The notes under the pieces were generated by a model. The model was not told the origin of the DNA, made no database searches, and worked only from the letters and a program-made list of their open reading frames with translations. Made by a program: the position numbers and the translations under genes. From Candidatus Uhrbacteria bacterium (GTDB taxonomy: Bacteria; Patescibacteriota; Patescibacteriia; UBA9934): DNA of 50,058 bases. Shown one piece after another: positions 2,875 to 50,058 of the stretch. Each line of letters opens with the position of its first letter. The stretch's first letter is position 1. The stretch lies in NCBI GenBank assembly GCA_018664485.1, contig JABJOE010000009.1, forward strand, positions 142,635-192,692, given 5' to 3'.

Positions 2875-2928
2875 GGGGTGACTTTAGCACCTTGAGGTAA
2901 GAGTCGCAATTAAGTACCATATACACGT

Positions 2929-3252
2929 ATGAAAAAGACTTTTAAAGAGCAGTGGAACGAAAGACTTGCCGAGGCGCAACAAAAAGAAGATAAGATGAGT
3001 AAGCCTGAAATGCGCGACACCCCCGAAGCCACGAAGCACTATCGAAAGATTGGATTTATGTTATTTGTGCTTGGATGTGCATTTGCCGTAGCCAACTTCG
3101 CTACCCTTATGATGGAAGGACGCATTCTGATCATTTCCTTTTCAGTAATGATCTTCTGTATTCCATTCGGGCTTTGGCTAGTAGCATTTGGTAAACTTCC
3201 AAGATGGTTCACGGAGCTTAATAAGCATTTGAAAAAGGGTTATAAAAAGTAA
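2929..3252 (+). CDS. hypothetical two-TM membrane protein
   Basis: 107-aa ORF with two hydrophobic spans (FMLFVLGCAFAVANFATL, ILIISFSVMIFCIPFGLWLVAF). A hairpin lies immediately downstream. Confidence 0.6.
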   Translation: MKKTFKEQWNERLAEAQQKEDKMSKPEMRDTPEATKHYRKIGFMLFVLGCAFAVANFATLMMEGRILIISFSVMIFCIPFGLWLVAFGKLPRWFTELNKHLKKGYKK

Positions 3253-3254
3253 CA

Positions 3255-3278
3255 GACCCCCTACAAGTGCAGGGGGTC
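3255..3278. terminator. GC hairpin between convergent genes
   Basis: GACCCCCTacaagtgcAGGGGGTC. The T-run is present only on the minus-strand side (tctgttacttttt). Confidence 0.5.
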
Positions 3279-3345
3279 CGAGACGAGGTTCTTACTGTAT
3301 CTGGCCGTATTTTACCACCGCAAAACTCAACCGACACCACTCGTT

Positions 3346-3750
3346 CTATCGACGAAGATCGTGAACGACGTATATGTTGCACAGAGGTCCCGATTGACCA
3401 AATCGACAGTTCATAGTCGAGTCAGTGGCATTGATAAACTGTGCAACCAAAATCAATGCACTGTCAGAGTGGTTCTCCACCACATCATCGATGGTACGCG
3501 AAGTTTGTGGAGATACTCGCATCCACCTATCATCAAAGCCCAGAACAAACGCTACGCAAATCATAACGTGACCGAGAGATCCGTTGGCAGCACCTCCGAT
3601 GAGTGTATGGCCCGAAAGCTCGTCGGTATGCATGATCCTCACATGCGTACCGTTACCAACATTCAAAGACTCAAAGGAATCCGCGACCCCGAATCTTTCT
3701 ACCAGTTTTTTCAAGCCACCCTGTCCTAAGCCTAGTTCTATGGAGCTCAT
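3346..3750 (-). CDS. hypothetical protein (134 aa)
   Basis: ATG 3748-3750 is preceded by GGAGGAAGAG. GC is visibly higher than in the neighbours. No recognisable motif. Confidence 0.6.
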   Translation of the reverse strand: MSSIELGLGQGGLKKLVERFGVADSFESLNVGNGTHVRIMHTDELSGHTLIGGAANGSLGHVMICVAFVLGFDDRWMRVSPQTSRTIDDVVENHSDSALILVAQFINATDSTMNCRFGQSGPLCNIYVVHDLRR

Positions 3751-3847
3751 CTCTTCCTCCTACCGTGAAAATGGATGATGATCTTTTACACAGTACTAAA
3801 AATTACTGATATTTTACCAAAAAGTCAAGCATATAAGTCAAAAGCCG

Positions 3848-3876
3848 TTGACACAGGGGCCATTTTCACGTATATT
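3848..3876 (+). promoter_or_regulatory. sigma70-type promoter for tRNA-Gln
   Basis: TTGACA (3848-3853), a 17-nt spacer, then TATATT (3871-3876), about 65 nt upstream of the tRNA. Confidence 0.65.
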
Positions 3877-3941
3877 CTGACCGCGCATCATTGAGCGATT
3901 CCGGATCGTCCGGTACCGCTAGCTGGTGTAAAAGTTATTAT

Positions 3942-4015
3942 TCCCGGATCGTCTAATGGCAGGACGCCTGGTTTTGGTCCAGGTAATCGGAGTTCGAATC
4001 TCTGTCCGGGAACCA
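3942..4015 (+). tRNA. tRNA-Gln (anticodon TTG), CCA encoded
   Basis: Folded by hand. Acceptor TCCCGGA/TCCGGGA, D-stem GTCT/GGAC, anticodon stem CCTGG/CCAGG with loop TT-TTG-GT, T-arm CGGAG-TTCGAAT-CTCTG, discriminator A, then CCA. Confidence 0.9.
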
Positions 4016-4016
4016 A

Positions 4017-4047
4017 CAAAAGAACCGACAATTGTCGGTTCTTTTGT
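4017..4047 (+). terminator. intrinsic terminator after tRNA-Gln
   Basis: AGAACCGACAatTGTCGGTTCTtttgtt. Confidence 0.7.
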
Positions 4048-4090
4048 TGGTTCAAGGCCGAAGGCCTAAATGATTCTCTATGGTTTTAGC

Positions 4091-4161
4091 AAAAATCATT
4101 TCCGGGCAGAGACTTCCCGAGCGAAGAAAGTTTACTTTCGAGAGCGAGGGTATATATCTGT
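4091..4161 (+). repeat. 71-bp direct repeat, copy 1
   Basis: Identical 71/71 to 4262-4332 (AAAAATCATTTCCGGGCAGAGACTTCCCGAGCGAAGAAAGTTTACTTTCGAGAGCGAGGGTATATATCTGT). Confidence 0.95.
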
Positions 4162-4261
4162 TTGTCGGACATAGATCCTGCCGAACGATCAAGTCGCAGA
4201 CTTGTTTAGAGTGAGGCAATATATCTGTCTGAAGGTTTTCAAACTATTTCCGTGGAATCAT

Positions 4262-4332
4262 AAAAATCATTTCCGGGCAGAGACTTCCCGAGCGAAGAAA
4301 GTTTACTTTCGAGAGCGAGGGTATATATCTGT
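4262..4332 (+). repeat. 71-bp direct repeat, copy 2
   Basis: Identical 71/71 to 4091-4161. It ends 1 nt before the stop of the 4333.. gene. Confidence 0.95.
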
Positions 4333-4692
4333 CTAAAAGAAATTAACCCCGGCCATGAAAACGATCAACATTATTATTGTATTAACAAATAAAAGAACTC
4401 CAGCTATTGATAGGAAATATCCAAATAAATTCAAAAACTTCGTTGCGAGTCTATCTCCCGTCGGCGTTTTTACTATCGCGCCGATCACCCGTCTTTGATA
4501 TGCAAAAGCGAACCCCATCCACAAATCGGTCATTATCGACCGACTTGATGGAACATTTATAAAATCGTCTAACATCTTCTTAAGTGAGCCTATATCTCTA
4601 TGCCATTTTCCAAGCCACAAAACACCAAAGCCCATCGGTATGAAAGCTAGGCTGAATAGCACTTCAAAAATGTTTAGATTCAATATTTCCAT
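4333..4692 (-). CDS. hypothetical multi-TM membrane protein
   Basis: ORF-track 4333..4710. ATG at 4692 (MEILNLNIFEVLFSLAFIPMGFGVLWL...); the TTG at 4710 is an alternative start. Low GC. Confidence 0.6.
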   Translation of the reverse strand: MEILNLNIFEVLFSLAFIPMGFGVLWLGKWHRDIGSLKKMLDDFINVPSSRSIMTDLWMGFAFAYQRRVIGAIVKTPTGDRLATKFLNLFGYFLSIAGVLLFVNTIIMLIVFMAGVNFF

Positions 4693-4808
4693 ATAAAACA
4701 ATTGTAACAAAAAATGTGTTCATATATCGAGCTGCATGTACACAGTCCATATAACAAGAAACCGCCCGCGTGAGCGAGGGGCTCCGGGGCGATGAGATTG
4801 GCGGCGCA

Positions 4809-5165
4809 CTATGGCAGATCGCCGGTATCAACGTGCGGCAGCACGCTAGACGAATAGCTGCAGTTCTCGATGTCTTTACCGTCCATCACGATTTCGTATA
4901 CACAGGCCAGGCAAACGGTAGTATCGACTTCAAGCTCTCCACACTCGGGTGAATGGCAATCATGCCGATTACGCTTTCCGTCATACTCAATGGTAAGTCG
5001 CCAAACATCATCGTCGACAAACTCTGGCAACTCGGCAAGCGTACCCCTCACCTCGAGCCAATAACCACCCTTAACCTCCATACCTCTATTGTCACACCCC
5101 TCCCCAAGATCGGGGCCAAGCAAGAAAACGGCAACTAATGCACTGTGCACAATGTAACGAAACAT
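4809..5165 (-). CDS. hypothetical secreted Cys-rich protein (118 aa)
   Basis: ATG is preceded by TAGGAGGTCATC. N-terminal signal-like MFRYIVHSALVAVFLLG. Higher GC than the backbone. Confidence 0.65.
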   Translation of the reverse strand: MFRYIVHSALVAVFLLGPDLGEGCDNRGMEVKGGYWLEVRGTLAELPEFVDDDVWRLTIEYDGKRNRHDCHSPECGELEVDTTVCLACVYEIVMDGKDIENCSYSSSVLPHVDTGDLP

Positions 5166-5223
5166 GATGACCTCCTATATAAACTATAGCAGATAAGTGG
5201 TCGTTAAGTTTAAAAAGTAATTT

Positions 5224-5362
5224 GGTTGCTAAGTCGTTGAGTTACTAAGTTATTGAGTTGCTTGGCGTTTTTTTGTTTTAAGTTTTGAACATTTGATCTT
5301 TATTATTTGTTTGTTACTTATTTTCTGGATACTTGGTACTTTATGATTCTTGTCTGCCATAA
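5224..5362. repeat. ~130-bp AT-rich direct repeat, copy a (upstream of the 4809..5165 gene)
   Basis: Aligns with 6243-6370 with small indels: AAGTTATTgAGTTGCTTGGCGTTTTTTTgTTTtaAGTTTTGAacATTT...ATTTGTTTG...TGGAtACTTGGT...CTGCCAtaAAC. Confidence 0.8.
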
Positions 5363-5410
5363 AACAAAGCACCCCGTCGAAAGGCCGAAGGGGGCCTGTT
5401 CGCACGGGGC
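5361..5410 (-). terminator. terminator of the 5435..6154 gene
   Basis: Minus strand reads GCCCCGTgcgaacaGGCCcccttcGGCCtttcgACGGGGTGCtttgtttt. It is preceded by the perfect 16-bp palindrome CTGTAGATATCTACAG (5418-5433). Confidence 0.65.
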
Positions 5411-5434
5411 GAGAACGCTGTAGATATCTACAGT

Positions 5435-6154
5435 CTAGCGACTGTCTACGTGCGGGTCGGGTCCGTACCAGGTGAGGATTTTCTCAACTGCCGGACGTTC
5501 CGCCAACGGTACCGTGAGGTATACGTTGGGATCACTCCAGATAGTCAGAGCGCCGTCATCGTCGATCCAGCAGACGAGAGAACTTTTTCCTTGCATGCAC
5601 GGGCGAAGGTTGTCTCCGTGAATCTGCGTCGCCTTGCGGGCGCTATGCATCATAGCCCAGCAGGTGTACCTGGCAGGCTGATCATTGGGCGACTTCCACC
5701 CTGCTTCGGCGGCTTCCCTGCATGTCCGCACGTCCCGATTCGAGCTACTGGGTGCATCGTTGTCGTCAGGTGCGTTGCGCCCGTACCAGGTGATATGAGG
5801 GTCGACCTCGGGGCGATCTGCAACACGAACGAATGTCCAGTCAACATGGCTGCTCCAGATATACAGCCCACCCTTGTGCAGCTCGTTCTTCTCAACCCAG
5901 CATGCATTCGGCAGACCTCCATGTTCGCACGGGTAGAGATCATCTCCAGCAACATGTTTCTGGTTTCGGGCGGTTCGCATCTTGTTCGCACAGACACGCT
6001 CAGCTGGAATCGTGGTCGACAATCCCCAACCATCCTCAACGGCATCTGCACATTTCTGTGCGTCAGCCTTTGCGGTAGCCTCACGCTCCGCGGTCCTGTC
6101 TTTGTCTCCGCAGGCGAACATCATGACCAACAGGCCGGAAAGAAACAACTTCAT
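5435..6154 (-). CDS. hypothetical lipoprotein with an internal tandem duplication (~100 aa x2)
   Basis: SD GAGGGAG lies 5 nt before ATG 6152-6154. MKLFLSGLLVMMFAC is lipobox-like. The two halves share C..A.E.GW...PA...C...M..AR...GD.L.PC..G...CW....IWS....RP.V...TWYG. About 58 G+C per 100 nt by hand count. Confidence 0.75.
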   Translation of the reverse strand: MKLFLSGLLVMMFACGDKDRTAEREATAKADAQKCADAVEDGWGLSTTIPAERVCANKMRTARNQKHVAGDDLYPCEHGGLPNACWVEKNELHKGGLYIWSSHVDWTFVRVADRPEVDPHITWYGRNAPDDNDAPSSSNRDVRTCREAAEAGWKSPNDQPARYTCWAMMHSARKATQIHGDNLRPCMQGKSSLVCWIDDDGALTIWSDPNVYLTVPLAERPAVEKILTWYGPDPHVDSR

Positions 6155-6206
6155 CACTACTCCCTCAGGTCGGCGGAACTGCCATACCCAGTCAAAAGAC
6201 AGCTCA

Positions 6207-6234
6207 AATTATCACAAAAATGCCTTCATGTCAA
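6207..6234 (-). promoter_or_regulatory. promoter of the 5435..6154 gene
   Basis: Minus strand reads TTGACA (6229-6234), a 16-nt spacer ending in TGTG, then ATAATT (6207-6212). Confidence 0.6.
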
Positions 6235-6242
6235 TAGAATGA

Positions 6243-6370
6243 GAGTCGCTGAGTAATTAAGTTATTAAGTCGCTTGGCGTTTTTTTATTTGAAGTTTTGA
6301 GTATTTAATATTTGTTTGGTTCTTGCTTCTTGGACACTTGGTTCTTCGTGCCCCTTACCTGCCACTAACC
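6243..6370. repeat. ~130-bp AT-rich direct repeat, copy b (upstream of the 5435..6154 gene)
   Basis: See 5224-5362. It contains 8-bp-spaced TGAGT/TAAGT units. Confidence 0.8.
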
Positions 6371-6443
6371 ACGGATCCACACCTCATATCACCCAAAACA
6401 AACAAGCGTGCTAAAATATATCCGTAATTTATTATTCTTTTTT

Positions 6444-6923
6444 ATGAAGAAACTCCCATTTTTCCTACTCGCTTTTACTCTCGTACTAACTGGAGCCGGA
6501 TGTTCTGGTGCTACAGACTCAGGTGAAGGCGCTTCATCAGGAGGCGGAGACGGTGTTTCAATCTTCTCAACTGGAGAACTTGTAAACGACAGTCTTTACA
6601 ACGAGTACAACGGAAACACAGACGGATTCATGACATATGAATTCAACGAGGTGGAAGGAACATGTTCTGACAACATGCTCGGATCATTAACATACGAATA
6701 CCAGGATGCAAGTAAGTATCACGTTGGAATGAGCGACATCCAAGAAGACGACGCTCTAGTAGCGCTTGGAACAACGGCTAACACTATGGACTGGTACTTC
6801 TACGGAGTAGATGCAGGAACAGTAAGCTGCAGCTTCGAAATTGACGGAGAAACATTCGACGTAACATGTGACCAAAACAGTGCAGAGCTCTGTTCTGGAA
6901 CATTCACAGGTACAGCACTTTAG
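6444..6923 (+). CDS. hypothetical lipoprotein
   Basis: ATG 6444 gives MKKLPFFLLAFTLVLTGAGCSG (signal peptide plus Cys). The track start at 6408 is unlikely. Confidence 0.7.
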   Translation: MKKLPFFLLAFTLVLTGAGCSGATDSGEGASSGGGDGVSIFSTGELVNDSLYNEYNGNTDGFMTYEFNEVEGTCSDNMLGSLTYEYQDASKYHVGMSDIQEDDALVALGTTANTMDWYFYGVDAGTVSCSFEIDGETFDVTCDQNSAELCSGTFTGTAL

Positions 6924-6940
6924 TTCTCAAACAGACATTA

Positions 6941-6972
6941 AAAACACCCGCCACGGCGCGGGTGTTTTTGTT
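6941..6972. terminator. bidirectional terminator between convergent genes
   Basis: aaaaCACCCGCcacggcGCGGGTGtttttgtttt. Confidence 0.75.
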
Positions 6973-6989
6973 TTGTTCATTTTTATTAT

Positions 6990-9104
6990 CTACAACCTCT
7001 TTAAACGTAGAGAGTTGAGTAACACCGATATCGATGAGAATGCCATCGCTCCGGCTGCAATCATAGGATTTAGAAGCCCTAATGCTGCGAGCGGAATGCC
7101 GAGTGCATTGTATATAAATGCCCAGAACAAATTCTGTTGAATAGTTCCAAACGTTTTTCGAGAAATCAATATCGCCTCAGGGATCTTTGATGCCTCTCCA
7201 CCAATAATCACGATCTGACCAGATTCAATAGCGATGTCCGTTCCAGTCCCCATGGCAATTCCCAGGTCTGCCTGGGTTAGAGCTGGAGCGTCATTAATAC
7301 CGTCACCCACGAACACTACACGCTTCCCTTCCTGCTGTGCCGCTTTTACCAGATTCAACTTATCTTCAGGGAAAATCTCAGCATGTACATCAGTAATTCC
7401 AACAAGTTTTGCAATCGCCTCGGCCGTACGTTTATTATCACCAGTAAGCATTACTGGGTTAATGCCCAGTTTACGCAGTTTACGTATAGCATCATGTGCA
7501 CCGTCTTTGAGAGGATCAGCAACAGCAATAGCTCCGATACAAATCCCACCTTGCGATACATACACTACGGTCTTCGCTTCCCGCTCCAGTCGCTCCACTT
7601 CTTCTGAAGGAACCTCATCAGTCCCTGGCACGAATCCAGACCTCCCAATTTTAATCTCAACGCCACCCACAGACCCGACCATACCCTTCCCGGTTTCTGA
7701 CTGAGCATTGGTCACAGGTGAAAGTTTTGCACCACGCTCTTCCGCTGTACGCACAATAGCAGCAGCTAGAGGATGCTCAGACGAAGCTTCGAGTGAAGCC
7801 GCGAGTGCGAGCAATTCATCTTCCGAAACACCGCTTGTCAGCACATCGGTGACAGCAGGTTTACCCTGTGTAATGGTTCCCGTTTTATCCAACATTACTA
7901 CATCTAGATTCTTTCCACGCTCGAGAGCCTCTCCAGACTTAATAAAAATCCCACTCTTGGCAGCACGTCCGGTACCTACAAGAATAGCCGTTGGAGTTGC
8001 AAGTCCAAGCGCACATGGGCACGCAATGACGAGCACCGCTACAGCCGGGATGAGTGCCGCGTAAATATCACCCGTAACAATCATCCAAACCACAAATGTC
8101 AGCAACGCAATTCCGATTACCACCGGAACAAATATTCCAGAGATACGATCGGCTAACTTTTGCATCGGCGCCTTCTGTGCCTGAGCGTTTTTTACAAGTT
8201 CAATAATTTGTGAGAGTACCGACGTTTCTGACGTTGCAGTAATCCGCACCTTCAATACTCCTGTCTGGTTCACCGTCGCTCCATATACTTCTAAATCAAC
8301 GGCTTTTTTGACCGGAATACTCTCACCCGTAAGCATAGATTCGTCGATAGTTGATGACCCCTCTATCACAACTCCATCAAGTGGAATTTTCTCTCCTGGC
8401 TTTACCAGGACAACATCACCAATTTTAAGCGCGCTTACGTCAACATCGCTCACCGATCCATCTTCTCCGATCAAATGAGCCAACTTCGCACCTAGCTCCA
8501 ACAGCTTTGCAATAGCTTCACCGGCACGTCCTTTGCTCAACGCTTCAAAATACCGACCCATCAAAATCAAAGCCGTTATAATTGCCGCCGTTTCAAAGTA
8601 TACGTCTCCGCCTTGCGTCATCGACCAAATACTGAACAATACAGCGGCAAGTGTACCCATAGAAATTAGGCTATCCATGTTGGCAGACTTCTTTTTAAGC
8701 TGTTTCCAGGCCGTCTTGTGAAATTCCATTCCCGGGCCAAAGACAACTACTAATGTTAGCAGCCCCTCAATGTAAGTACCGTAAGGAATATCGATCTTAA
8801 ACATTGCTATAACAAATACCGGTAATGCCAATAGTCCCGCTATAATAGCTTTTCGTTTTGCCGCGCGGGCGTCTTTTAAATGCTCATGTTTTGCGTCTTC
8901 CTCAGCAATCACTTTGTATCCTTCACTTACAACTACACCATGCAATGCAGACGGATCATCCGAATCACTTTCCACCGTAGCTTGGGCCATCGCGTAATTT
9001 ACTGTGGCGCTTTTAACTTCCGGTAAGTCCGTAAGAGACCCTTCAATCTTTACAGCACAGGAAGCACAATGCATTCCTGAAATTTTAAATGTATGTTTTG
9101 TCAT
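6990..9104 (-). CDS. copA: copper-translocating P1B-type ATPase
   Basis: N-terminal [15 protein letters not shown], the CPC motif ([12 protein letters not shown]), DKTGTIT and [11 protein letters not shown]. Confidence 0.92.
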
Positions 9105-9115
9105 ATTAATTTATT

Positions 9116-9236
9116 GAATGAGTCGAGATATTCGAGTTTAATTTCGGCTAACAGACAGCAGTCGAGGCCTGGTCCGGCTCCGCCGGATACTCTCGCTGTA
9201 AACAGAGGCCCCATAAGCCAAAAGTGGTCCAACTAA
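9116..9236 (-). repeat. intergenic palindrome element, copy B2
   Basis: Minus strand reads GTTGGACCACTTTTGGCTTATGGGGCCTCTGTTTA + TATCCGGCGGAGCCGGACCAGGCC + GCCGAAATTAAACTCGAATATCTCG. The 36-nt block 9200-9235 matches 9361-9396 at 34/36. Confidence 0.8.
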
Positions 9237-9240
9237 CCAG

Positions 9241-9397
9241 AACTTTGATATTCGAGGTTAGTTTAGGTGAACGGGTGGCATAATAGGGATTTAGATAGTT
9301 GAGATCAATTTTGGTGCATGGAGATGTTTTGTCGAGACGTACCTACAGTACGTTGAGGCTAAACAGAGGCTCCATAAGCCGAAAGTGGTCCAACTAG
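9241..9397 (-). repeat. intergenic palindrome element, copy B1 (starts at the stop codon of the upstream gene)
   Basis: Minus strand reads TAGCTAGTTGGACCACTTTCGGCTTATGGAGCCTCTGTTTAGCCTCAACGTACtgtagGTACGTCTCGAC...CTCCATGCACCAAAATTGATCTCAAC. Confidence 0.8.
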
Positions 9398-10744
9398 CTA
9401 GATCCCAGGGGTTACAATCATTGTTCCACGTATCATCCCCATTGAACAACTAAACGTAAACCTCCCAGTCTCTGTAGGAGTGAACTGAACAAGATTTTTA
9501 CCCGTACGTAAATTTTCATTTACACCGAACGCGGGCAAGATCAACGTATCTCCACATCCCATGTAATCATCTCCGTTAATCGTCCAGTCAACCGGAATTC
9601 CCTCCTGTACCGTAAGCGTGCTCGGACTATATCTCCCACGACTCGTCATATCCATTTCAATCTGTTGACGACCATCTACCAGAACTATATCTGCAGCTTC
9701 TTCCTGCGTGACATCTGAAGCAAATACAGTATCTGGACTAATACCGAGTAAAGTCATTCCGTTTGTTACGTTACTGATCCCCAATATAAGAACGATTACT
9801 CCGGCAAACTGAGTTACCTTCTTGAGAGTATCTCCAGACGCATACGATGTAGCGCCACCAATACCAAGAAGTACTGGAGCTGTTCCAATAGCAAATATCG
9901 CCATCACCATCCCAGACTGGATTGGATCTTGAAGTGTAAGCGCAAATAACTGCATAGACTGCGTGAATCCGCACGGTAGAAAGAATGTCATTGCACCGAG
10001 AGCCATCGGAGCTTTCGGGTCCTTAGATTCAGCCAAGTCATGCACTTTATGCGCTAGCCATTTCGGCATACTAATAACATTCGAAGGAAAAACACCCATC
10101 AAATTGACTCCGATTGCAATCATCATCAAAGCAACGATAACAACGAATATTCCGTTTAACGCTGGACTCAATTGAAGTGCTGACCCTGCATAACCAATAA
10201 CGGCACCAAACGCAAAGAACCCAAGGACTCGTCCAAGGTTAAATAGTATATGTGGCTGGAATCTCTCCCTTGGAGTCATGCCCTCCTGATCTTTTGCAAC
10301 GGCACTACTGACAGCCGCGACCAATCCACCGACTACCGCGGTACACGATGACAACGACGCAATCACACCGATTATCAGAATCCCCACAAGGCTTGCAGGA
10401 GCAGCTGATGAAGGACTTAATCGCAATACTCCAAGTCGGTCTAAAATTATATAGAGCGACAATACGAATACCGCAGCCGCACCAACGCGCTGCCAATTTA
10501 TTCTCGGTTTTTTCTTGTTACCTCCTTTATCTTTTTTACCGACATGATAATCATGCTTTTCAAGGAAGGCGGTCAATTCATGATGAGTGTATCTGCGGTC
10601 CCCTGTTGTCTCAAGTTGAATCTGTCTTTTACTGTGAGAAACATCGACCGACACAATATCCGGTTGCCTCTTTAACTCCCGCTCAATAACGACTTCGCAA
10701 CTCTTACAGGTGGTGCCGCGAACGAAAAATTGTTGTCTTGCCAT
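9398..10744 (-). CDS. HMA domain / multi-TM (TauE/DsbD-like) / C-terminal cupredoxin-like fusion protein
   Basis: N-terminal GTTCKSCEVVIE (CxxC), about 6-7 hydrophobic spans including FFLPCGFTQS, and a C-terminal beta-rich region ending FSCSMGMIRGTMIVTPGI. Confidence 0.75.
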   Translation of the reverse strand: MARQQFFVRGTTCKSCEVVIERELKRQPDIVSVDVSHSKRQIQLETTGDRRYTHHELTAFLEKHDYHVGKKDKGGNKKKPRINWQRVGAAAVFVLSLYIILDRLGVLRLSPSSAAPASLVGILIIGVIASLSSCTAVVGGLVAAVSSAVAKDQEGMTPRERFQPHILFNLGRVLGFFAFGAVIGYAGSALQLSPALNGIFVVIVALMMIAIGVNLMGVFPSNVISMPKWLAHKVHDLAESKDPKAPMALGAMTFFLPCGFTQSMQLFALTLQDPIQSGMVMAIFAIGTAPVLLGIGGATSYASGDTLKKVTQFAGVIVLILGISNVTNGMTLLGISPDTVFASDVTQEEAADIVLVDGRQQIEMDMTSRGRYSPSTLTVQEGIPVDWTINGDDYMGCGDTLILPAFGVNENLRTGKNLVQFTPTETGRFTFSCSMGMIRGTMIVTPGI

Positions 10745-10790
10745 AGAAAATAAAAAATTAGGATTTCAAAAACTTGAAGGTCCCAACGGC

Positions 10791-11177
10791 TCATTCTCTC
10801 TTTTGAATTGTGAGATGACGTTTTGAATCTAATAATGGCTGACTGTCTCGTATAGACTCTTCACGCTTTTCAATTATAGCGTGGTAAAACCGCTCATGAT
10901 CAATATCTCCATCAAAGGAAATATCTACTGCCTCAAGCGCTGTAGGTAAAGGGGCATGATCTTTAATAGCTCGCAAACAGTGTTCAACGCAGCTTGATTG
11001 AGGCGACTCCTCACAACTACCATCCATACAGTCCATACCCGGCATCATCTCCGCATCCATCTGCATACCGCCATCAGTAGCATGCACAACATGAAGATTT
11101 GGAACGGCAAAAGAAACTGTAAGTAACAATACTGCTACCCATCTCTTTCGAGTCAAGACTGAAAAACTCTTAAACAT
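10791..11177 (-). CDS. secreted Met/His/Cys-rich protein, possible copper-binding
   Basis: Signal-like N-terminus, then HVVHATDGGMQMDAEMMPGMDCMDGSCEE. It is the first gene of the copper cluster. Confidence 0.6.
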   Translation of the reverse strand: MFKSFSVLTRKRWVAVLLLTVSFAVPNLHVVHATDGGMQMDAEMMPGMDCMDGSCEESPQSSCVEHCLRAIKDHAPLPTALEAVDISFDGDIDHERFYHAIIEKREESIRDSQPLLDSKRHLTIQKRE

Positions 11178-11231
11178 GGCTATATGCTATCAGACTATAG
11201 TAGCTAAGCGCAATATCTATATTACATAAAG

Positions 11232-11392
11232 AAAAACAGGATCTACACCTGTAAATCCTGTAAGCGTGCTCCGTGACGCCACCCCGCAGCCCCGTGAGAT
11301 GGGCAGCCGCTACGGGATGACGTCTGCTCGGGAGCAGGAAGTCGAGCAATGGCCAAGAGGCCAAACGTGACACGGCGAAGGTAGCGAGTGTC
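11232..11392 (-). ncRNA. candidate ~160-nt GC-rich transcript or leader upstream of the copper cluster
   Basis: Bounded by TTGACC-N17-TAAGGT (11399-11427) and the hairpin plus T-run at 11232-11260. No ORF. The body is GC-rich and self-complementary. Confidence 0.3.
11237..11260. promoter_or_regulatory. 24-bp near-palindrome containing a TACAnnTGTA cop-box-like core
   Basis: CAGGATcTACAccTGTAaATCCTG has 20/24 symmetric positions, with core TACACCTGTA at 11244-11253, 60-83 nt upstream of ATG 11177. It could equally be a terminator stem (a T-run follows on the minus strand). Confidence 0.45.
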
Positions 11393-11456
11393 GGTAAGAC
11401 CTTAACAATCATTAAAGGTGTGGTCAAATGATGGATGGTAATATTGTTTAATTTTA

Positions 11457-11490
11457 GCGAAAAACAAAACACCCGCCCCAAGGCGAGTGC
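11457..11490 (-). terminator. terminator of the 11509..12189 gene
   Basis: Minus strand reads CACTCGCCttggGGCGGGTGttttgttttt. Confidence 0.7.
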
Positions 11491-11508
11491 TTTGAAGCTT
11501 CTTTAAAA

Positions 11509-21197: not shown

Positions 21198-21226
21198 AAT
21201 TTAATTTTGTGTTCATTTTAGATCAA
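21198..21226 (-). promoter_or_regulatory. possible internal promoter for rplL, carried by the element tail
   Basis: Minus strand reads TTGATC (21221-21226), spacer TAAAATGAACACAAAAT (17 nt), then TAAATT (21198-21203). Confidence 0.35.
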
Positions 21227-21279
21227 TACCGACAAACAGAAACTCTGAAGGCGATAATGATGTAAATGAGAAGTCGGAC
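21205..21279 (-). repeat. intergenic palindrome element, partial copy C2
   Basis: Minus strand reads GTCCGACTTCTCATTTACATCATTATCGCCTTCAGAGTTTCTGTTTGTCGGTATTGATCTAAAATGAACAC. It aligns to C1 at an offset of 116 nt. Confidence 0.8.
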
Positions 21280-21398
21280 GCACTCATTTGATATCAGTAT
21301 CGGTGCGTAGAGACGTTTGACTGAGGCGTACTTACAGTACGTTGAAGTTAAACAGAGACTCTACAAGGCGATAATGATGCAAATGAGAAGTCCTACGC
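21280..21398 (-). repeat. intergenic palindrome element, copy C1 (overlaps the rplJ stop codon)
   Basis: Closed by 8-bp arms CTCATTTG (21283-21290) / CAAATGAG (21380-21387). Inner arms GTAGAG (21307-21312) / CTCTAC (21359-21364). Central hairpin CGTACttacaGTACG. Confidence 0.85.
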
Positions 21399-21917: not shown

Positions 21918-22083
21918 AGTTTTTATAGAACATTAGGCGTGAATTAGTCCGTCCTGTTGAAACTTCTGAATTTTCAATAAAAAAAGACGGCGTTTCTACG
22001 CCGCAAATATAAGGAATTTCCAATATTTGGCACCTCGACGGGACTTAAGCTCACTTTGAGCACCCGTTGTCTACGGTGTAGAT
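21918..22083 (-). promoter_or_regulatory. rplJ leader with an attenuator-like terminator hairpin
   Basis: ~165-nt leader containing GGCGTagaaACGCCgtcttttttt (21979-22004), consistent with L10-leader-type autoregulation (established for Firmicutes-type leaders). Confidence 0.5.
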
Positions 22084-22089
22084 AGCATA

Positions 22090-22118
22090 ACTATACGGAA
22101 TTCATTACCTTTTGTCAA
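22090..22118 (-). promoter_or_regulatory. rplJ-rplL promoter
   Basis: Minus strand reads TTGACA (22113-22118), a 17-nt spacer, then TATAGT (22090-22095). Confidence 0.7.
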
Positions 22119-25990: not shown

Positions 25991-26318
25991 TTATATATCC
26001 AAAACAATCATGTCGCCTCCCCAAAAGCAAACTCCCACCGGTCCTTAAGACGGCGGGAGCGAGTGAGTGCCAGTGAGACTGGCGAGTTGGCGCCTGATAC
26101 CGGACTCGCCAGGCGGAGCCTGGTCCGGCTTCGCCGGAAACCCTTTGGTGAATAGCCGGCAAGGCAAAAGGCGGACTACTGTCCAGAAGCAGTGGCGAGG
26201 CAACCAACCTCAGTGTCCTTCGAGGGAAGGCGCATGAGCATGATGTAAGCCGCGAAAACCAACGCGGCCGTCAGCCTGATAGTCATTGACACAGTGAACA
26301 AGATTCACCTCCAATTCC
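25991..26318 (-). ncRNA. promoter/terminator-bounded GC-rich transcript (~360 nt including the terminator), function unknown
   Basis: Lies between the promoter at 26325-26353 and the terminator at 25961-25990. The 3' two-thirds is GC-rich, full of hairpins, and contains the 32-nt module shared with copy A. Confidence 0.4.
26176..26301 (-). CDS. possible 41-aa hydrophobic peptide at the 5' end of that transcript
   Basis: GGAGG (26308-26312) lies 6 nt before TTG 26299-26301. Translation: (M)FTVSMTIRLTAALVFAAYIMLMRLPSKDTEVGCLATASGQ*. Confidence 0.3.
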   Translation of the reverse strand: MFTVSMTIRLTAALVFAAYIMLMRLPSKDTEVGCLATASGQ

Positions 26319-26324
26319 GGCGGG

Positions 26325-26353
26325 AGTATAGCGCAGATTTTCGCGCATGTCAA
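26325..26353 (-). promoter_or_regulatory. strong sigma70-type promoter
   Basis: Minus strand reads TTGACA (26348-26353), a 17-nt spacer, then TATACT (26325-26330). Confidence 0.7.
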
Positions 26354-34028: not shown

Positions 34029-34203
34029 CTGTAGTTAGTCTGAGCGAGCGATCGTTCGGGCTGGCTATCTTCTTAGATCATTCGATGCATGCTGTAGACG
34101 AAAATGACAAAGGGTGACGAAACATAGTAGTGCTACGTTGAGGAACCATTGGACATTTGCAGACACAGCAGGCGCGAATGAGGCAAGGATATAGTTAGTC
34201 TGA
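34029..34203 (-). repeat. intergenic palindrome element, copy F, flanked by a duplicated gene end
   Basis: TAGTTAGTCTGA at 34032-34043 and 34192-34203 (offset 160). The interior has CCTCAACGTA, CGTCTAC and GCATCGAATGATCTAAG blocks of the family (minus-strand reading). Confidence 0.7.
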
Positions 34204-35589
34204 ACGATCACCTACCGCCCAATTCCGCAGCAACCACGTAGCACGAACATCGTCCTCGTTATAATCAATCGTATCTTGCAGCGCTTGTTCGTCTTTATTA
34301 TCCAAAAACTCGTGATACCACACAACCGAATTCTGCCCAGAAGCCTCAGGATGACGCCAAGAAAATCCAAGATACTTTGCAACATCTTTAAGCGAATAGA
34401 ATGACAACGGGAAGATCACACTCTCACGCAATCGAGGTAGCACATCTACCATACGTTCTTCGAACTGCTTTGCAATCCGATCTGGCACTCCGTACTTTAC
34501 TCCCATTCGTCTAAATACATCCAACTCATACCAACCATAGTGATACATCCGAGCATCTGGATAATCATCAATGAAGAGCAAGAATTCCTGCCACATCCTA
34601 CCCTCTTCCTCGGGAGTACGTGCCAAAAATGGAATATATTCTTCAACGTCACCGTTAATGCGTAGTACACCGATCAAATAATGTATGTCGCGTAATGGGT
34701 CGCTTTCAATATCAATCACTAGAACTACTCCATTCTCTGGCGGCAAATCAACAGGCCCTACAAAAATAACTTTGTTTTCTTTCAAAGATTCTGCCTGCTT
34801 CTGCAAAAATAGCGCACGGTCTTTTGTAACACCTGGAATCGCTTTGATCTGCTTTTCAGGAGCTTCCGCTAAATCAGTAACCGTATTTATAGACACTGCC
34901 TTAAGCGCATCCATCTCACTTCGCCATATACGATTAATAAGTGAAAGATGATCACATTCCTGAACTTCTTTGTGAAGTTTTTGGAACCACGGAGAATTCT
35001 TTGCAGCTGATGTTAAAAATGGTTCCGGCCGCTCACCGTCAACGATCCTCTCAATGTCATCAAGAGTAAGACGATAGTTCGCGTACACCTCATCGATTAA
35101 ATAACCCTCAACAACTCGATCAGCTCGCATCACATAACCTTGTACAGGTCGCAGTCCCTGAATCTCTTTTAATATATCTGCGTAAAAAGCTCCTTGGAAT
35201 CTATATTCATCCTTAAGATGGCGAGATCGTTTAATGTCGCATGCAACATAATAATAATCTCCCAGTTTAGAATCACCCTCAACACGCTCTAGAATATCTG
35301 GCTGTGCTACATGACGGCCATGCATAAGAACGCCACGATAGATAGTCTCGACCCCTTTCGCCATGAGCTCAAGGGTTTTTACAGAAGCTTCATCCAAATC
35401 AGGCAAATCGACCTCCTCTACTTTTCTATCCGAAAGTAGGATGCGAGCCTGTTCTTTTATCAAGCCCTCGTCTTGAAGCAGTTTAATGAGTGGCACGCGG
35501 ATATCTTCACCCTCCTGTGCTTCGTGATACAACCACGTTGGACACTTCATGTACTGATAAAAGGCGTGCTGGGTAATACGTTTTGACAT
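34195..35589 (-). CDS. RecB-like (PD-(D/E)xK, TM0106-type) nuclease fused to an RNase-H-like exonuclease domain, apparently leaderless
   Basis: Start MSKRITQHAFYQYMKCPTWLYH at 35587-35589. YYYVACDIKRS (nuclease core) and LVIDIESDP (DEDD-like). TATAAT lies 6 nt upstream of the ATG. Confidence 0.75.
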   Translation of the reverse strand: MSKRITQHAFYQYMKCPTWLYHEAQEGEDIRVPLIKLLQDEGLIKEQARILLSDRKVEEVDLPDLDEASVKTLELMAKGVETIYRGVLMHGRHVAQPDILERVEGDSKLGDYYYVACDIKRSRHLKDEYRFQGAFYADILKEIQGLRPVQGYVMRADRVVEGYLIDEVYANYRLTLDDIERIVDGERPEPFLTSAAKNSPWFQKLHKEVQECDHLSLINRIWRSEMDALKAVSINTVTDLAEAPEKQIKAIPGVTKDRALFLQKQAESLKENKVIFVGPVDLPPENGVVLVIDIESDPLRDIHYLIGVLRINGDVEEYIPFLARTPEEEGRMWQEFLLFIDDYPDARMYHYGWYELDVFRRMGVKYGVPDRIAKQFEERMVDVLPRLRESVIFPLSFYSLKDVAKYLGFSWRHPEASGQNSVVWYHEFLDNKDEQALQDTIDYNEDDVRATWLLRNWAVGDRSD

Positions 35590-35639
35590 AGGCACATTAT
35601 AACAGACCAAGCGAAAACACGTGCAAATCTCGCCCACCG

Positions 35640-35696
35640 CCAGCAATACGCAACCCGGTTGCGTATTTATCTGAAAACCAGAAACCGCCCACACCA
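35640..35696. repeat. 57-bp direct repeat, downstream copy (right after the cassette cargo)
   Basis: Aligns gap-free to 36410-36466 at an offset of 770, about 49/57 identical. It contains the hairpin AATACGCAAcccggTTGCGTATT and GAAACCGCCC. Confidence 0.9.
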
Positions 35697-35732
35697 CGAG
35701 GGATGCAGACGGTAACGATGAGCCCAGGCGGG

Positions 35733-36332
35733 CTAGAGAAACAGGTGAACTCGGACGAAGGTCTCGGACGCCGCACCGTCTTCCGCAAAGCGGACGCGCA
35801 CAGTCGTATCGAGGCCAAAGTATCCGGACTCAGACCGCAGAAGGATGTTCGGACCAGCTCCCACGCTGCTCGTCGCAGCAAAGTCGGTCAAGCCGCCATA
35901 GCCCTCGTACTCGGCGCCGATGTGAATATAGTCCGTGAGCTTGCGCTCCCACTGGCCGAAAGCATAGAAAGACCAGCTCTGCGGCTGAACTTCGAAATCG
36001 AACCAGCCGTAGCTGCTCTCGACATTGGGGTACAAGCGCAGTGCCGTGATGACCTCGTTGCTTCCGAAAGCATATCCTACTGTCGGTCGCACGCCCATCC
36101 ACTCAGGGCCAAGGCCCGTAAGCTCGATTACCGCTACTGGCGTGAGTCCGTCACTAGTCTTCGCCAGATTGGGGCTCAGAATCGCATGAGGAGCGAGCCC
36201 AATGTTCTCGGTCAGCGGAACGCTTGAGTGAATCAACAGCCGAAAACCGGCTTCCGGCAACGCATACGCGGGGGCACCCCACATAGCGAAGGCCGCCAAA
36301 ATGAACGCCATCAAACCGTGTACTCGATGCAT
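35733..36332 (-). CDS. secreted beta-strand-rich protein (outer-membrane beta-barrel-like), cassette cargo
   Basis: SD GGGAGGG before ATG 36330-36332. Signal MHRVHGLMAFILAAFAMWGAPAYA. Alternating hydrophobic pattern (YIHIGAEYEGY, TVRVRFAEDG, TFVRVHLFL). 59 G+C in 100 nt by hand count. Confidence 0.75.
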   Translation of the reverse strand: MHRVHGLMAFILAAFAMWGAPAYALPEAGFRLLIHSSVPLTENIGLAPHAILSPNLAKTSDGLTPVAVIELTGLGPEWMGVRPTVGYAFGSNEVITALRLYPNVESSYGWFDFEVQPQSWSFYAFGQWERKLTDYIHIGAEYEGYGGLTDFAATSSVGAGPNILLRSESGYFGLDTTVRVRFAEDGAASETFVRVHLFL

Positions 36333-36366
36333 GATCCCTCCCGGGTGTGAGTTGCAAGGAGAGATG

Positions 36367-36394
36367 AACTTAGCACTTTTCCCCCTTTTGTCAA
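36367..36394 (-). promoter_or_regulatory. cassette promoter
   Basis: Minus strand reads TTGACA (36389-36394), a 16-nt spacer, then TAAGTT (36367-36372). Confidence 0.6.
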
Positions 36395-36409
36395 CCCTAC
36401 AAACCCCTA

Positions 36410-36466
36410 CCAACAATACGCAACCCGGTTGCGTATATACCGCAAAACTAGAAACCGCCCGCGCCA
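36410..36466. repeat. 57-bp direct repeat, upstream copy (3' half of the ppiB terminator plus hairpin)
   Basis: See 35640-35696. Together with 36467-36490 it forms a complete 12-bp-stem terminator plus T-run for ppiB. Confidence 0.9.
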
Positions 36467-36515
36467 TATAGGCACGAGCGGCTTTTCTTTTCTATTTCTT
36501 CTGATTTGCCGGCAA

Positions 36516-37213: not shown

Positions 37214-37510
37214 TTACTTTACTTGTGTCTGCAAATGAGAGATCTCGGCAGCCTGATTATTCAATGCCCACACACTTGTTACAAGGACAGCTGATAGCGA
37301 GAACACTAGAATCAACAGCATACTTACCAACTCAATACTACCTACTGGCAGATGATCGCAGCTTCCACATGATGCCGGCGCTGACGGAACTGGCTCTGGT
37401 GTATCGTTTACCGGAGCAACCGACATTCGCTTCTTTTTACATGCGCGAACATGTGATGATAGGCCTCCAGCGCTCTTGGCCTTGAAAGAACAGTGTGTAC
37501 AATTAGACAT
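37214..37510 (-). CDS. hypothetical zinc-finger-like plus TM protein (98 aa)
   Basis: SD GGGGGA. CTHCSFKAKSAGGLSSHVRAC is C2HC-like. C-terminal TM. Confidence 0.55.
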   Translation of the reverse strand: MSNCTHCSFKAKSAGGLSSHVRACKKKRMSVAPVNDTPEPVPSAPASCGSCDHLPVGSIELVSMLLILVFSLSAVLVTSVWALNNQAAEISHLQTQVK

Positions 37511-37539
37511 AGAAATCCCCCTAATGAACGCTTATATTT

Positions 37540-37640
37540 GGACCATTTTCAGTTTCCAGCTGTGCTCCTCAACAACGTACCAATGGGTACGCTTTTCTAC
37601 GGTGCTCGCTGCGCACCGAAACTGATCTCAAATGTAAACG
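37540..37640 (+). repeat. intergenic palindrome element, copy E (opposite orientation to the other copies)
   Basis: Plus strand reads GGACCATTTT...CCTCAACAACGTACCaatGGGTACGC...GCGCACCGAAACTGATCTCAAATGTAAACG. Confidence 0.7.
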
Positions 37641-37667
37641 TTCTAAATTTATATTAAGATGTTCAAA

Positions 37668-38387
37668 TTATAACACAGGTTCTAAAATGGCCCCTTCACC
37701 ACACCCATACTCATCCACAACCCACTCTCCAACAAAGCGAAATTCGACTAAAGTCTCTACATCATCAACAAGTACACGAACTGAATGATCCAACTCAGAG
37801 CGCTCGTGAACATTACCGTGTCCGATCACACCGCTACAACCTCCAATTTCATCCTTTTGCTTAACACGCAGTACAAATCCGTCATCTCCAACTACACCAA
37901 CGGCTATCTCATACCCAACAGCATTTAACGGAGCCATAGCCAAAAGCTCGTCGTACTTAGATACAAAATCTGGAACTTCTATTTCTGTTTGTGGGAATAA
38001 GCCAAAGCCTCCAAGACGTGTAGTCACCGAGAAAACAATCTCATCGTTCGTTTGAGTGTCCACCTCAACCGGCTCCCACATATCAATATCTGCATTCCAC
38101 CAATATAGTAAATATCCCTGCGCTCCAGCGGAGACGAGATCGAATGTAATCGTGTACGGCTCATCTACATGTGTAAATTCAGGTCCGATACTGTATCGAA
38201 GTGGGTTTGTAGATGTTATAGAAATCGGCTGCTGCTCAAGCCACTCACCCGTCACCGTCACAACACCGTCGGAGCTCACCGCAACAGAATCCTCAGGTTC
38301 AGACACGAAAATAAAACTAATCGAAATAATCGCAATCAAAACAATCGCAACAATAGAAAAAACCTCCTTAAGCTTTACTGAGTTCAT
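37668..38387 (-). CDS. hypothetical membrane-anchored protein, apparently leaderless
   Basis: ATG 38385-38387 (MNSVKLKEVFSIVAIVLIAIISISFIF) lies exactly 6 nt downstream of TATAAT (38394-38399). Confidence 0.65.
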   Translation of the reverse strand: MNSVKLKEVFSIVAIVLIAIISISFIFVSEPEDSVAVSSDGVVTVTGEWLEQQPISITSTNPLRYSIGPEFTHVDEPYTITFDLVSAGAQGYLLYWWNADIDMWEPVEVDTQTNDEIVFSVTTRLGGFGLFPQTEIEVPDFVSKYDELLAMAPLNAVGYEIAVGVVGDDGFVLRVKQKDEIGGCSGVIGHGNVHERSELDHSVRVLVDDVETLVEFRFVGEWVVDEYGCGEGAILEPVL

Positions 38388-38461: not shown

Positions 38462-38500
38462 CAGGATTCGGTTGACGCGGCAGGAGACTTCGCTGTGATT
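38462..38500 (-). repeat. partial copy G of the element family
   Basis: Plus strand GGATTCGGTTGACGCGGCAGGAGACTTCGC compares with copy A AGTTTCGGTGAGCGGGTGGCGGGCAAGGAGACGCC. Confidence 0.45.
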
Positions 38501-49478: not shown

Positions 49479-50058
49479 CTAGGGCGTGGTCACGGTCAAG
49501 GTCATGTTGTGACCACCTTCGTAGTCGAAGTCCGTGACGGGTTCGCCGTTCCAGGTGAACCAGACATCGCTGCAGGTGTTCGTACCGTCGAAGTAGGCCG
49601 AATCACCCTGACTCGTACACAGCGACACCATATCGTCGGTGCTGCCGCTGGAGCCGTTGTCTGCATTGAACTCGACCACGGAAGTCACGGGCGCGTTGTA
49701 GCACGCACAAACCTCCTCCTCATCGGACGCCATCGCGACATAGCTGTCGCTCTGGTTGATCCACTGGGTGAAGTCGTAGCTGCCGGTGTCCCAGGCGTAC
49801 AAGTACCAGGTTCCCGTGCTGCCCGCGATGGGCGTGCCGCACAGGTTGTGGTAGTCATAGTCTGGGTTGACGGTGCTGTCCGCATCGTTGCAGTCGTCGT
49901 AGCCGGCATAGTAGCCGTCGCCGTCGTCGTCGATGAGCTCACAGGTCAGATCGATGTCTGCGTCGTCGTCGTCGCAGTCCTCGTCGTCGCCGTCGAAGTC
50001 GCCGTCGCCGTCGATGTCACAGTCGGTCTCGGAAACGGAGGTCGAAGCCTCGTCTCCG
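49479..50058 (-). CDS. C-terminal part of a high-GC, Asp/Cys-rich secreted-type protein (5' end beyond the window)
   Basis: The frame is open from the window end. Translation: ...DCDIDGDGDFDGDDEDCDDDDADIDLTCELIDDDGDGYYAGYDDCNDADSTVNPDYDYHNLCG...TLTVTTP*. The track shows only 49479..49802 (TTG start). 60 G+C in 100 nt by hand count. Confidence 0.75.
   Translation of the reverse strand, partial: GDEASTSVSETDCDIDGDGDFDGDDEDCDDDDADIDLTCELIDDDGDGYYAGYDDCNDADSTVNPDYDYHNLCGTPIAGSTGTWYLYAWDTGSYDFTQWINQSDSYVAMASDEEEVCACYNAPVTSVVEFNADNGSSGSTDDMVSLCTSQGDSAYFDGTNTCSDVWFTWNGEPVTDFDYEGGHNMTLTVTTP

Follow-up and report, generated by a model that had tools for sequence, protein, structure and literature searches.

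Bacterial repeats of less than 200 bp are known whose transcripts form long stem-loops by pairing of their 5' and 3' ends, and one of them, ERIC (also known as IRU), exerts an orientation-dependent effect on the stability of the flanking mRNA (PMC2229807, PMC1590033). Repetitive extragenic palindromic (REP) sequences are palindromes of 20–40 bp that carry GTAG or CGTC as a tag on one of their ends (PMC3733652). The family considered here was found in a stretch of 50,058 nucleotides from a Candidatus Uhrbacteria bacterium (GenBank assembly GCA_018664485.1, contig JABJOE010000009.1, forward-strand positions 142,635 to 192,692), hereafter the window, where its units occupy the spacer between two copper genes (9105–9397) and several other spacers. 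The ribosomal protein L10 encoded in the window has its nearest named relatives among Uhrbacteria and Patescibacteria MAGs. It is best regarded as an old non-coding hairpin repeat family, similar to ERIC and to MITEs (miniature transposable elements with inverted repeats), confined to one lineage within a Candidatus Uhrbacteria-like clade of the candidate phyla radiation (CPR, or Patescibacteria), with selection acting on the pairing of one strand and at least one copy having been kept, an interpretation that seems moderately probable. CPR bacteria have small, streamlined genomes whose non-coding content is almost unexplored, and a literature search turned up no description of MITE- or REP-type repeats for this group. 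The family lengthens spacers within core operons (rplJ–rplL and the copper genes), and could serve as a marker for comparing strains and species and for recognizing assembly breaks in these organisms, as a candidate post-transcriptional element in bacteria with almost no known regulation, and as a test case for the persistence of palindromic repeats in reduced genomes.

The main evidence for selection on the structure comes from compensatory changes in the stem. Full-length copies, 9–10 in number, are available from three genomes (that of the window, one represented by two JGI metagenome contigs, and a second, related genome), and nine of them enter the largest alignment. With four copies, double changes are found in 16 of 47 pairs (7.6±1.8 in shuffled controls, 1–5 when the partners are slid), with five copies in 24 of 48 pairs (10.9±2.3 shuffled, 4–8 slid), and with nine in 28 of the 38 consensus pairs (13.6±2.4 shuffled, 7–14 slid). 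The signal became stronger with each addition of copies, above both controls every time; the shuffle control ignores the relatedness of the copies and the slid control does not, and both give the same answer. In the nine-copy alignment, 87.8% of the cells are paired, compared to 33–41% with slid partners. The exchange that first drew attention to the family, in which ATGGAG (9318–9323) faces CTCCAT (9370–9375) in copy B1 and GTAGAG (21307–21312) faces CTCTAC (21359–21364) in copy C1, is located exactly where an earlier analysis made from the DNA letters alone (the sequence-only reading) had placed it, and its pairing is confirmed. Similarly, the apical stem of copy I is CGACC/GGTCG in place of CGTAC/GTACG, with both changed pairs compensated. 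The pairing of one arm with the other is therefore kept up by compensatory changes, which supports the original proposal of a structured, MITE- or REP-like RNA or DNA family under selection for pairing.

The complete units (type I), of ~120–140 nt, each form one imperfect hairpin from end to end, with about 38–49 pairs. From base to tip they consist of a basal stem that varies, arms that are conserved (5' CATTTGAGATCAGTTTCGGTGC and 3' AAGCCGAAAATGRTCCAAATG), an inner stem that varies as well, and an apical ACGTAC-loop-GTACGT. The sequence at the foot of the stem is 5' (A)GTTG...CAAC(T) 3' or CATTTG...CAAATG, and the outermost 10–12 nt are the part least conserved in sequence between copies. 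The apical CGTAC/GTACG, which holds two GTAC sites as an inverted repeat, is the least variable part of the type I units; it is missing from J, A, B2, and C2. There are three derived forms. C2 consists of the arms only, with the centre deleted, and the type II units (A and B2) keep the arms and have the centre exchanged for two short GC hairpins (CCTGG..CCGGCnnnGCCGG in B2). As a correction to the common layout first proposed, A and B2 form no end-to-end hairpin, because their centre has been replaced by the GC-rich double hairpin. Units of the third form, copies K and Lc, carry the inner stem CGGGTGGCAGAC/GTCTGACGGGACCCG, of which A and the half-unit at 9241–9282 keep the 5' side only.

Members were located in the window by short-word blastn, by an nhmmer profile built from six copies, and by an unfiltered covariance model, three methods that agree on A, B1, B2, C1, C2, and D; in all, the 50-kb window contains 6–9 units of 65–150 nt, or ~2% of its length. 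The sequences at 1274–1409, 21205–21398, and 37540–37640 (the last inverted), already listed as relatives in the sequence-only reading, are true members (blastn/nhmmer E of 1e-7 to 1e-27), and B1, C1, and D reach 108–134 bits with the covariance model. Folding z-scores of -5 to -8 place the family hairpins far past chance, and B1, C1, and D come second, fourth, and fifth in excess stability when all 50 kb are folded in a sliding window. No unit has a match in Rfam 15, even at E<=1 (the only matches in the window are a tRNA-Gln, an L10 leader, and four weak unrelated ones), in agreement with the initial impression that this is not a named family. Plasmids, phages, and viral contigs gave no match to it, and no coding capacity was found, all frames being stopped at the 5' end of B1.

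A consistent difference in stability between the two strands is the second feature of the family. One element strand is the more stable in 10 of the 10 full-length copies, by 2.5–25 kcal/mol (Table 1), F being almost equal on both. For the copies of the copper spacer the sequence-only reading had described the minus strand, which is the weaker-folding one. Across seven copies the better strand contains 40 G-U pairs against 11 A-C mismatches (which would be G-U pairs if read on the other strand), at positions that vary from copy to copy. DNA parameters yield an identical ranking (-27.2 versus -16.5 kcal/mol for B1). With respect to the flanking genes, the better-folding strand is antisense in A, B1, B2, C1, C2, G/Lc, I, and K, and sense in D/J, F, and H. 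A mutation bias linked to replication or transcription was considered as a source of the G-U asymmetry and rejected: C-to-T changes on the leading and coding (minus) strand would put the G-U pairs on the minus strand, while they are seen on the plus strand in A, B, C, and G, and such a bias is also unable to follow the inverted copy D, where the G-U pairs go with the element. The asymmetry is therefore a property of the element itself. As G-U (or G-T) pairs are tolerated on one strand, the constraint seems to act on the single-stranded form, RNA or DNA, of that strand.

Comparison with related loci shows that the units entered short intergenic spacers at different times, usually at the upstream stop codon and leaving the downstream start region intact. 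The rplJ–rplL spacer measures 213 nt in the window and 20, 50, 25, and 42 nt in four relatives; the rplJ stop codon is the exact site of the insert, and rplL is still preceded by the ancestral TCTATTYATCA...ATG. Likewise, the lemA–htpX spacer is filled in the JGI contigs (L141/L140) and has 39 nt in the relative L142. These empty spacers indicate that the copies were inserted. Every unit abuts or overlaps the stop codon of the upstream gene (0–13 nt), a placement that, given the short ancestral spacers, is probably what selection allows.

Copies are not confined to the source contig, a confinement that the sequence-only reading had named as contrary evidence. A metagenome scan detected the element at the ends of the two JGI contigs, one reading lemA then element and the other element then htpX (copy F), and both break off inside the element, as assemblies do at repeats. 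The LemA protein cluster led to the second genome, whose contigs measure 249 and 926 kb and whose L10 is 77.6% identical to that of the window; ~58 kb of it hold five units (H, I, J, K, and Lc). One more possible copy lies at positions 1–64 of L140 (reverse strand), where GAGAACGTGCGCAAATCAG follows the htpX stop codon and GC-rich short hairpins continue to the contig end; the related genome has the type I unit H at this site, and the L140 sequence may be a unit resembling type II. Unit K is located just upstream of the second-genome region that corresponds to the L10 leader, which in the window (RF00557, 53.9 bits) lies upstream of rplJ at 21971–22094 on the minus strand. No copy was found in ~40 kb of the closest sister genomes, L124 and L128, nor in 20 kb of the most distant one, L129. 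Since protein identities order these genomes as ((L124, L128), window), then L154 (the second genome), then L129, the distribution of the family is patchy.

Two sites are shared between the window and the second genome. Copies G and Lc both follow an RNase_H_2-domain gene in the same orientation, and D and J likewise agree in orientation and in site, between a 262/233-aa gene and a 98/101-aa gene upstream of a cyclophilin gene. Synonymous changes are saturated between these two genomes, with 32.9% identity at fourfold degenerate sites (n=413) and 43% at third positions. D and J nevertheless agree at 96 of 141 positions (68%), at 48 of 57 (84%) in the 5' arm, and at 31 of 33 in its outer part, so that the conservation of the 5' arm is on par with that of first and second codon positions (80–87%). 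It is more likely that D and J have been held by purifying selection since the lineages split than that the same subtype entered the spacer twice, because private features, among them the basal stem GAACGTTTA, are common to both. In J, part of the 3' inner arm is missing while the sequence of the 5' arm is retained, and the constraint on this pair is therefore not on pairing alone. Just upstream of both copies, over the stop codon of the upstream gene, there is an extended -10-like motif (TGTTATAAT at 37667–37675 in the window, TGTTATACT at ~411–419 in L154), from which D and J may, judging by sequence, form the 5' end of a transcript. Their conservation points to recruitment by the host, as a 5' untranslated region element.

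Among the described families, ERIC/IRU (127 bp) is the closest in architecture: it is also a non-coding imperfect palindrome of similar size with an end-to-end stem-loop, located in intergenic co-transcribed regions in either orientation and with internal insertion and deletion variants. ERIC, too, is an old family, and Wilson and Sharp, in 2006, reportedly found ERIC copies conserved at orthologous sites. There is, however, probably no sequence similarity, the host belongs to an unrelated phylum, and the resemblance is architectural and functional only; membership in ERIC itself is implausible because of the host phylum and the lack of plasmid and phage matches. Furthermore, ERIC is listed with TA termini and target duplication (PMC2229807), neither of which is demonstrable in the Uhrbacteria family, for which, in turn, a consistent strand asymmetry of folding is documented. 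Correia/NEMIS, RUP, and RPE resemble the family in being shorter than 200 bp, non-coding, and dispersed in many copies, with long-hairpin transcripts and filled and empty sites, and Correia also shows size variants by an internal segment, 107 versus 155 bp (PMC2229807). Unlike the Uhrbacteria units, which have variable termini, a genome-average G+C of about 43–51%, and 65–76% identity, these repeats have conserved terminal inverted repeats, usually a TA duplication, AT-richness, and often near-identical copies.

The SMR-A and PATE elements of Haloquadratum are similar in being palindromic or inverted-repeat sequences of ~110 bp, transposase-free and without target duplication, and in lying inside or beside other repeats, as B1 does by the half-unit and B2 (PMC3119063). 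Both are, on the other hand, archaeal; PATEs have two separate near-terminal palindromes related to IS605-type ends, and SMR-A copies exceed 95% identity and target other mobile elements (PMC3119063), properties that the units do not show. Each Uhrbacteria unit is a single whole-length hairpin rather than two subterminal palindromes, and membership in the IS200/IS605-derived PATEs, which lack terminal inverted repeats, appears unlikely for this reason, although the absence of a duplication is compatible with it. Integron attC sites are imperfect palindromes of 57–141 nt right after a stop codon, conserved in structure over sequence and active as one folded strand. The units share with them the imperfect palindrome at the stop codon, the conservation of structure over sequence, and one special strand; identification as attC fails on the absence of R-box polarity and consensus, on the neighbours (rplJ/rplL and other syntenic core genes), and on the absence of a cassette array and of an integrase in the window and the related loci examined. 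REP sequences and BIMEs were likewise rejected, as the units have 120–140 nt and GTAG appears at the base of copies I and F only, and so was an intrinsic terminator, there being no T-run past the long hairpin on either strand and only an internal 5-bp stem with the poor tail TCTGTTT.

The reading as an old ERIC/MITE-like family rests on the features by which MITEs are recognized (PMC2229807) and that are found here: dispersed non-coding units of less than 200 bp, terminal inverted repeats forming an end-paired stem-loop, and filled and empty sites. Under this reading, the family would have originated as a non-autonomous mobile element, in the manner of ERIC, Correia, RPE, and other MITE-like repeats, and its hairpin, once co-transcribed with the neighbours, would act as RNA, either as a determinant of stability or processing or as an uncoupler of adjacent cistrons; any such effect would be expected to depend on the orientation of the unit. 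Several observations weigh against it. The A+T-richness of MITEs is lacking (42–51% G+C in the units, ~45% on average in the window), and no target-site duplication or consistent terminal TA was found at any copy, including the comparison of filled and empty rplJ–rplL spacers; TA stands beside some unit ends (D, F, and I), inconsistently, and the age of the copies may have erased a duplication. Pfam searches revealed no transposase in the window or the related loci examined, and the variable outermost 10–12 nt are the part that a transposase normally recognizes. No two copies are near-identical, the best full-length identity being ~76% (range 65–76%), and recent mobility is therefore unsupported. 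L124 and L128 are copy-free in ~40 kb, with the G site empty in L128, which requires losses or repeated insertion at one site. Finally, a hairpin acting in the host mRNA predicts the sense strand, whereas the better strand is antisense in 8 of 11 independent copies, and this strand asymmetry is the main feature left unexplained by a simple hairpin in the mRNA.

Other explanations give a role to one strand. One, which we regard as a minor possibility, is that the units represent a strand-specific functional class of this CPR clade, under purifying selection at orthologous sites across species: either ~130-nt RNA hairpins (antisense regulators of gene junctions, or double-strand RNase substrates yielding small RNAs) or single-stranded DNA elements moving by an undescribed mechanism without target duplication or conserved termini. 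In another, the units would be genes for small structured RNAs, or processed hairpin RNAs of ~130 nt from the better-folding strand, with the dispersed copies as paralogs or retro-copies of a master RNA, and the units of the copA spacer would yield an RNA antisense to the copper gene junction. The same strand folding better whatever the orientation of the neighbours, with G-U against A-C at 40 to 11, the plentiful compensatory changes, the conservation of orthologous copies beyond synonymous saturation, and the near-perfect 48-pair hairpin of copy I (-67.7 kcal/mol, z -8.1) all agree with this proposal. No conserved promoter or terminator in that orientation was found in or beside the units, however, nor a T-tract after the hairpin; the units tightly fill spacers of co-oriented genes and overlap stop codons, and A, B2, and C2 persist without the hairpin. 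Moreover, DNA parameters reproduce the asymmetry, which therefore does not single out RNA, and small-RNA genes appear unlikely. Less likely still is that the folded single-stranded DNA is the substrate of a strand-specific HUH/Y1-type or tyrosine recombinase (as in IS200/IS605 ends, PATE, REP/RAYT, and attC), with the hairpin as the recognition structure for movement. A strand-specific hairpin with tolerated G-T pairs and small bulges, the absence of target duplication, and a structure conserved while the sequence varies, as in attC, would fit this mechanism, and the haloarchaeal PATE and SMR also lack target duplication and coding capacity (PMC3119063). Against it, a GTAG or CGTC tag is not consistently present and the units have 3–5 times the length of a REP (PMC3733652), and PATEs have separate near-terminal palindromes rather than one end-to-end hairpin (PMC3119063). 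Nor does the stem base fit the attC consensus RYYYAAC...GTTRRRY, and Pfam detected no gene for such an enzyme either in the window or in the related genome, of which ~80 kb were covered. Elements of the IS608 type use the lagging-strand template, whereas the better strand lies on the C-rich strand in six of the seven window units and, by GC skew, is not that template.

Two further explanations were considered. Sites in duplex DNA (palindromic operators, or targets of a methyltransferase or nucleoid protein) centred on the ACGTAC-N5-GTACGT apex would be in line with the low variability of the apical CGTAC/GTACG in type I and its two inverted GTAC sites, but would leave 40 compensated stem pairs and the strand bias of G-T over A-C unaccounted for; the apex is swapped by compensated changes in copy I and absent from J, A, B2, and C2, which makes this option very improbable. 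Equally hard to sustain is a cis-regulatory RNA that serves the copper operon alone (as an attenuator, riboswitch, site of processing, or metal-responsive leader), close to the operon-internal element that the sequence-only reading had considered. The pair does lie between two co-oriented copper genes bounded by terminators at 11460–11496 and 6938–6974, and weak promoter-like and terminator-like matches exist inside the units on the mRNA strand. These consensus matches hardly exceed the shuffled expectation, though, the mRNA is the weaker-folding strand, and the small GGCTTATGGAGCC stem has a poor T-tract. In addition, units are found in both orientations beside rplJ/rplL, lemA/htpX, htpX/clpB, type IV secretion genes, and a cytidylyltransferase-like gene, so that an element specific to copper is unlikely.

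Within the copper spacer itself, the two related units described in the sequence-only reading are present, with changed boundaries. The 293 nt of 9105–9397 comprise a complete unit (B1) and a rearranged one (B2), separated by a half-unit; B1 extends over 9283–9410, and 9241–9282, formerly counted as part of it, is the separate half-unit. The 36-nt blocks at 9200–9235 (B2) and 9361–9396 (B1) match at 34 of 36 positions, exactly as claimed. The 3' outer stem of B1 covers the stop codon (9398–9400) and the final codons of the HMA/DsbD/cupredoxin gene, and B2 ends 11 nt short of the copA start codon. The GAACGGGTGGC of the half-unit is also found in copy A and in the related-genome copies K and Lc. 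On the mRNA strand of the copper operon the fold of B1 still amounts to about -27 to -39 kcal/mol. The pair is best read as one insertion, B1, with B2 and the half-unit as relics beside it, rather than as a regulator dedicated to copper, and the understanding of the copper operon itself is unchanged by the family, which has no specific tie to copper. The B1 hairpin may nevertheless influence processing, or the coupling of copA expression to the upstream gene. An outward-facing -35-like TTGATC is located at the unit end in B1 and C2, with a -10-like hexamer 17 nt downstream; as the counts of such motifs are near the shuffled expectation, this is no more than a possible signal.

Table 1. Units of the hairpin family and the copper genes flanking its spacer. 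Positions are those of the window unless another genome is given; for B1 the strand is the better-folding one. Energies are in kcal/mol.
Feature	Location	Strand	Evidence	Better strand	Other strand
copA-type P1B ATPase gene	6990–9104	minus	Pfam		
HMA + DsbD-like membrane domain + cupredoxin gene	9398–10744	minus	Pfam		
A, type II unit	1262–1410	plus	nhmmer E 3e-27; core 93% identical to 26102–26142		
B2, type II unit	9116–9236	plus	nhmmer E 1e-20; 34/36 block in common with B1		
Half-unit, 5' arm plus GAACGGGTGGC	9241–9282	plus	blastn 80% to 1274–1303; nhmmer E 0.002		
B1, complete type I hairpin, ~48 pairs	9283–9410	plus	covariance model 127.2 bits	-60.8	-38.6
C2, short form (arms only, centre deleted)	21200–21276	plus	nhmmer E 1e-7; 88% identical to C1 3' arm		
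C1, complete type I hairpin	21278–21398	plus	covariance model 134.2 bits	-47.6	-36.4
E, GC-rich double-hairpin core without family arms	26102–26142	plus	93% identical to A over 41 nt		
G, diverged hairpin unit	34060–34200	plus	covariance model 12.9 bits, E 0.34 window-wide (marginal)	-49.9	-36.5
D, complete type I hairpin, inverted	37518–37653	minus	covariance model 108 bits	-51.7	-39.4
F	JGI contig, before htpX			-57.7	-55.2
H, type I	second genome, between htpX and clpB			-38.2	-31.2
I	second genome, between prgI-like and traC-like genes		near-perfect 48-pair hairpin, z -8.1	-67.1	-42.1
J, ortholog of D	second genome, L154:429–549		covariance model 57.4 bits	-45.5	-38.8
K	second genome, L154:9755–9893			-64.9	-56.2
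Lc, ortholog of G (same site and orientation)	second genome, L154:3052–3142		covariance model 28.5 bits	-43.1	-32.6

The remaining units of the window occupy comparable positions. A is placed 6 nt past the stop codon of the cytidylyltransferase-like gene, ahead of that gene's terminator (1212–1240). C1 abuts the rplJ stop codon (21393–21395), and C2 lies in tandem with it, 20–30 nt ahead of the rplL start codon. D fills the spacer upstream of the 98-aa gene (37214–37510), and its better-folding strand is there the mRNA strand. Copy G, proposed at 34029–34203, is only marginally similar in sequence; it folds as a 141-nt hairpin (z -5.9), overlaps the stop codon (34195–34197) of the RNase_H_2-domain gene, and is accepted as a diverged member because of this fold and because its site is orthologous to that of a clear member in the related genome. 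In the case of E, the covariance model gave no match to the arms at 26102–26142. This core sits within a non-coding structured stretch of ~300 nt (26030–26330), with ~60% G+C, the inverted ends ACTCCCACCGG / CCGGCGGGAGT, a folding z of -2.9 to -3.8, and no Rfam match, which stands where the relatives have a queuosine-synthesis gene. All in all, the family splits into the long hairpin, the centre-deleted form, and the form with a GC double-hairpin centre.

The copper genes lie in a larger region (~2900–11500), between a mechanosensitive-channel gene and a DUF362 gene, together with several open reading frames without a family match and the tRNA-Gln. They are flanked by terminator-like hairpins, identified by an inverted-repeat search at the positions given above, and the variable region beside the tRNA-Gln to which they belong is missing from the relative L128. 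Since the mechanosensitive-channel and DUF362 genes are near-adjacent in L128, the region appears to be a variable island. The top structure outlier of the window is a perfect 44-nt palindrome at 4010–4053 (22 + 22, no spacer), right after the tRNA-Gln (3942–4015), which, in contrast to the hairpin family, is equally stable on both strands. Two other sequences that had been proposed as members, 38462–38500 and 4091–4332, gave no signal with the nhmmer profile or the covariance model and do not belong to the family. The latter contains an exact 71-nt direct repeat (4091–4161 and 4262–4332, 171 nt apart) with a partial third copy at 4208–4233, unrelated to the hairpin family.

Other repeats of the window are of different kinds. 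A direct repeat of ~90–130 nt (5232–5366 and 6244–6371, 72–78% identical) brackets a G+C-richer segment with long overlapping open reading frames (5435–6157 minus, 5450–6256 plus) that have no Pfam match; this might represent a small module, mobile or duplicated, within the copper island. A 57-nt repeat (35640–35696 and 36410–36466, 86% identical), which contains the 22-nt palindrome ATACGCAACCCGGTTGCGTAT, is found at the 5' ends of the adjacent minus-strand genes 34195–35697 and 35733–36467. Finally, the right end of the window (49870–50030) holds a G+C-rich repeat with a period of 12 nt and eight copies, 61–82% identical, whose minus strand probably encodes a stretch of repetitive acidic protein.

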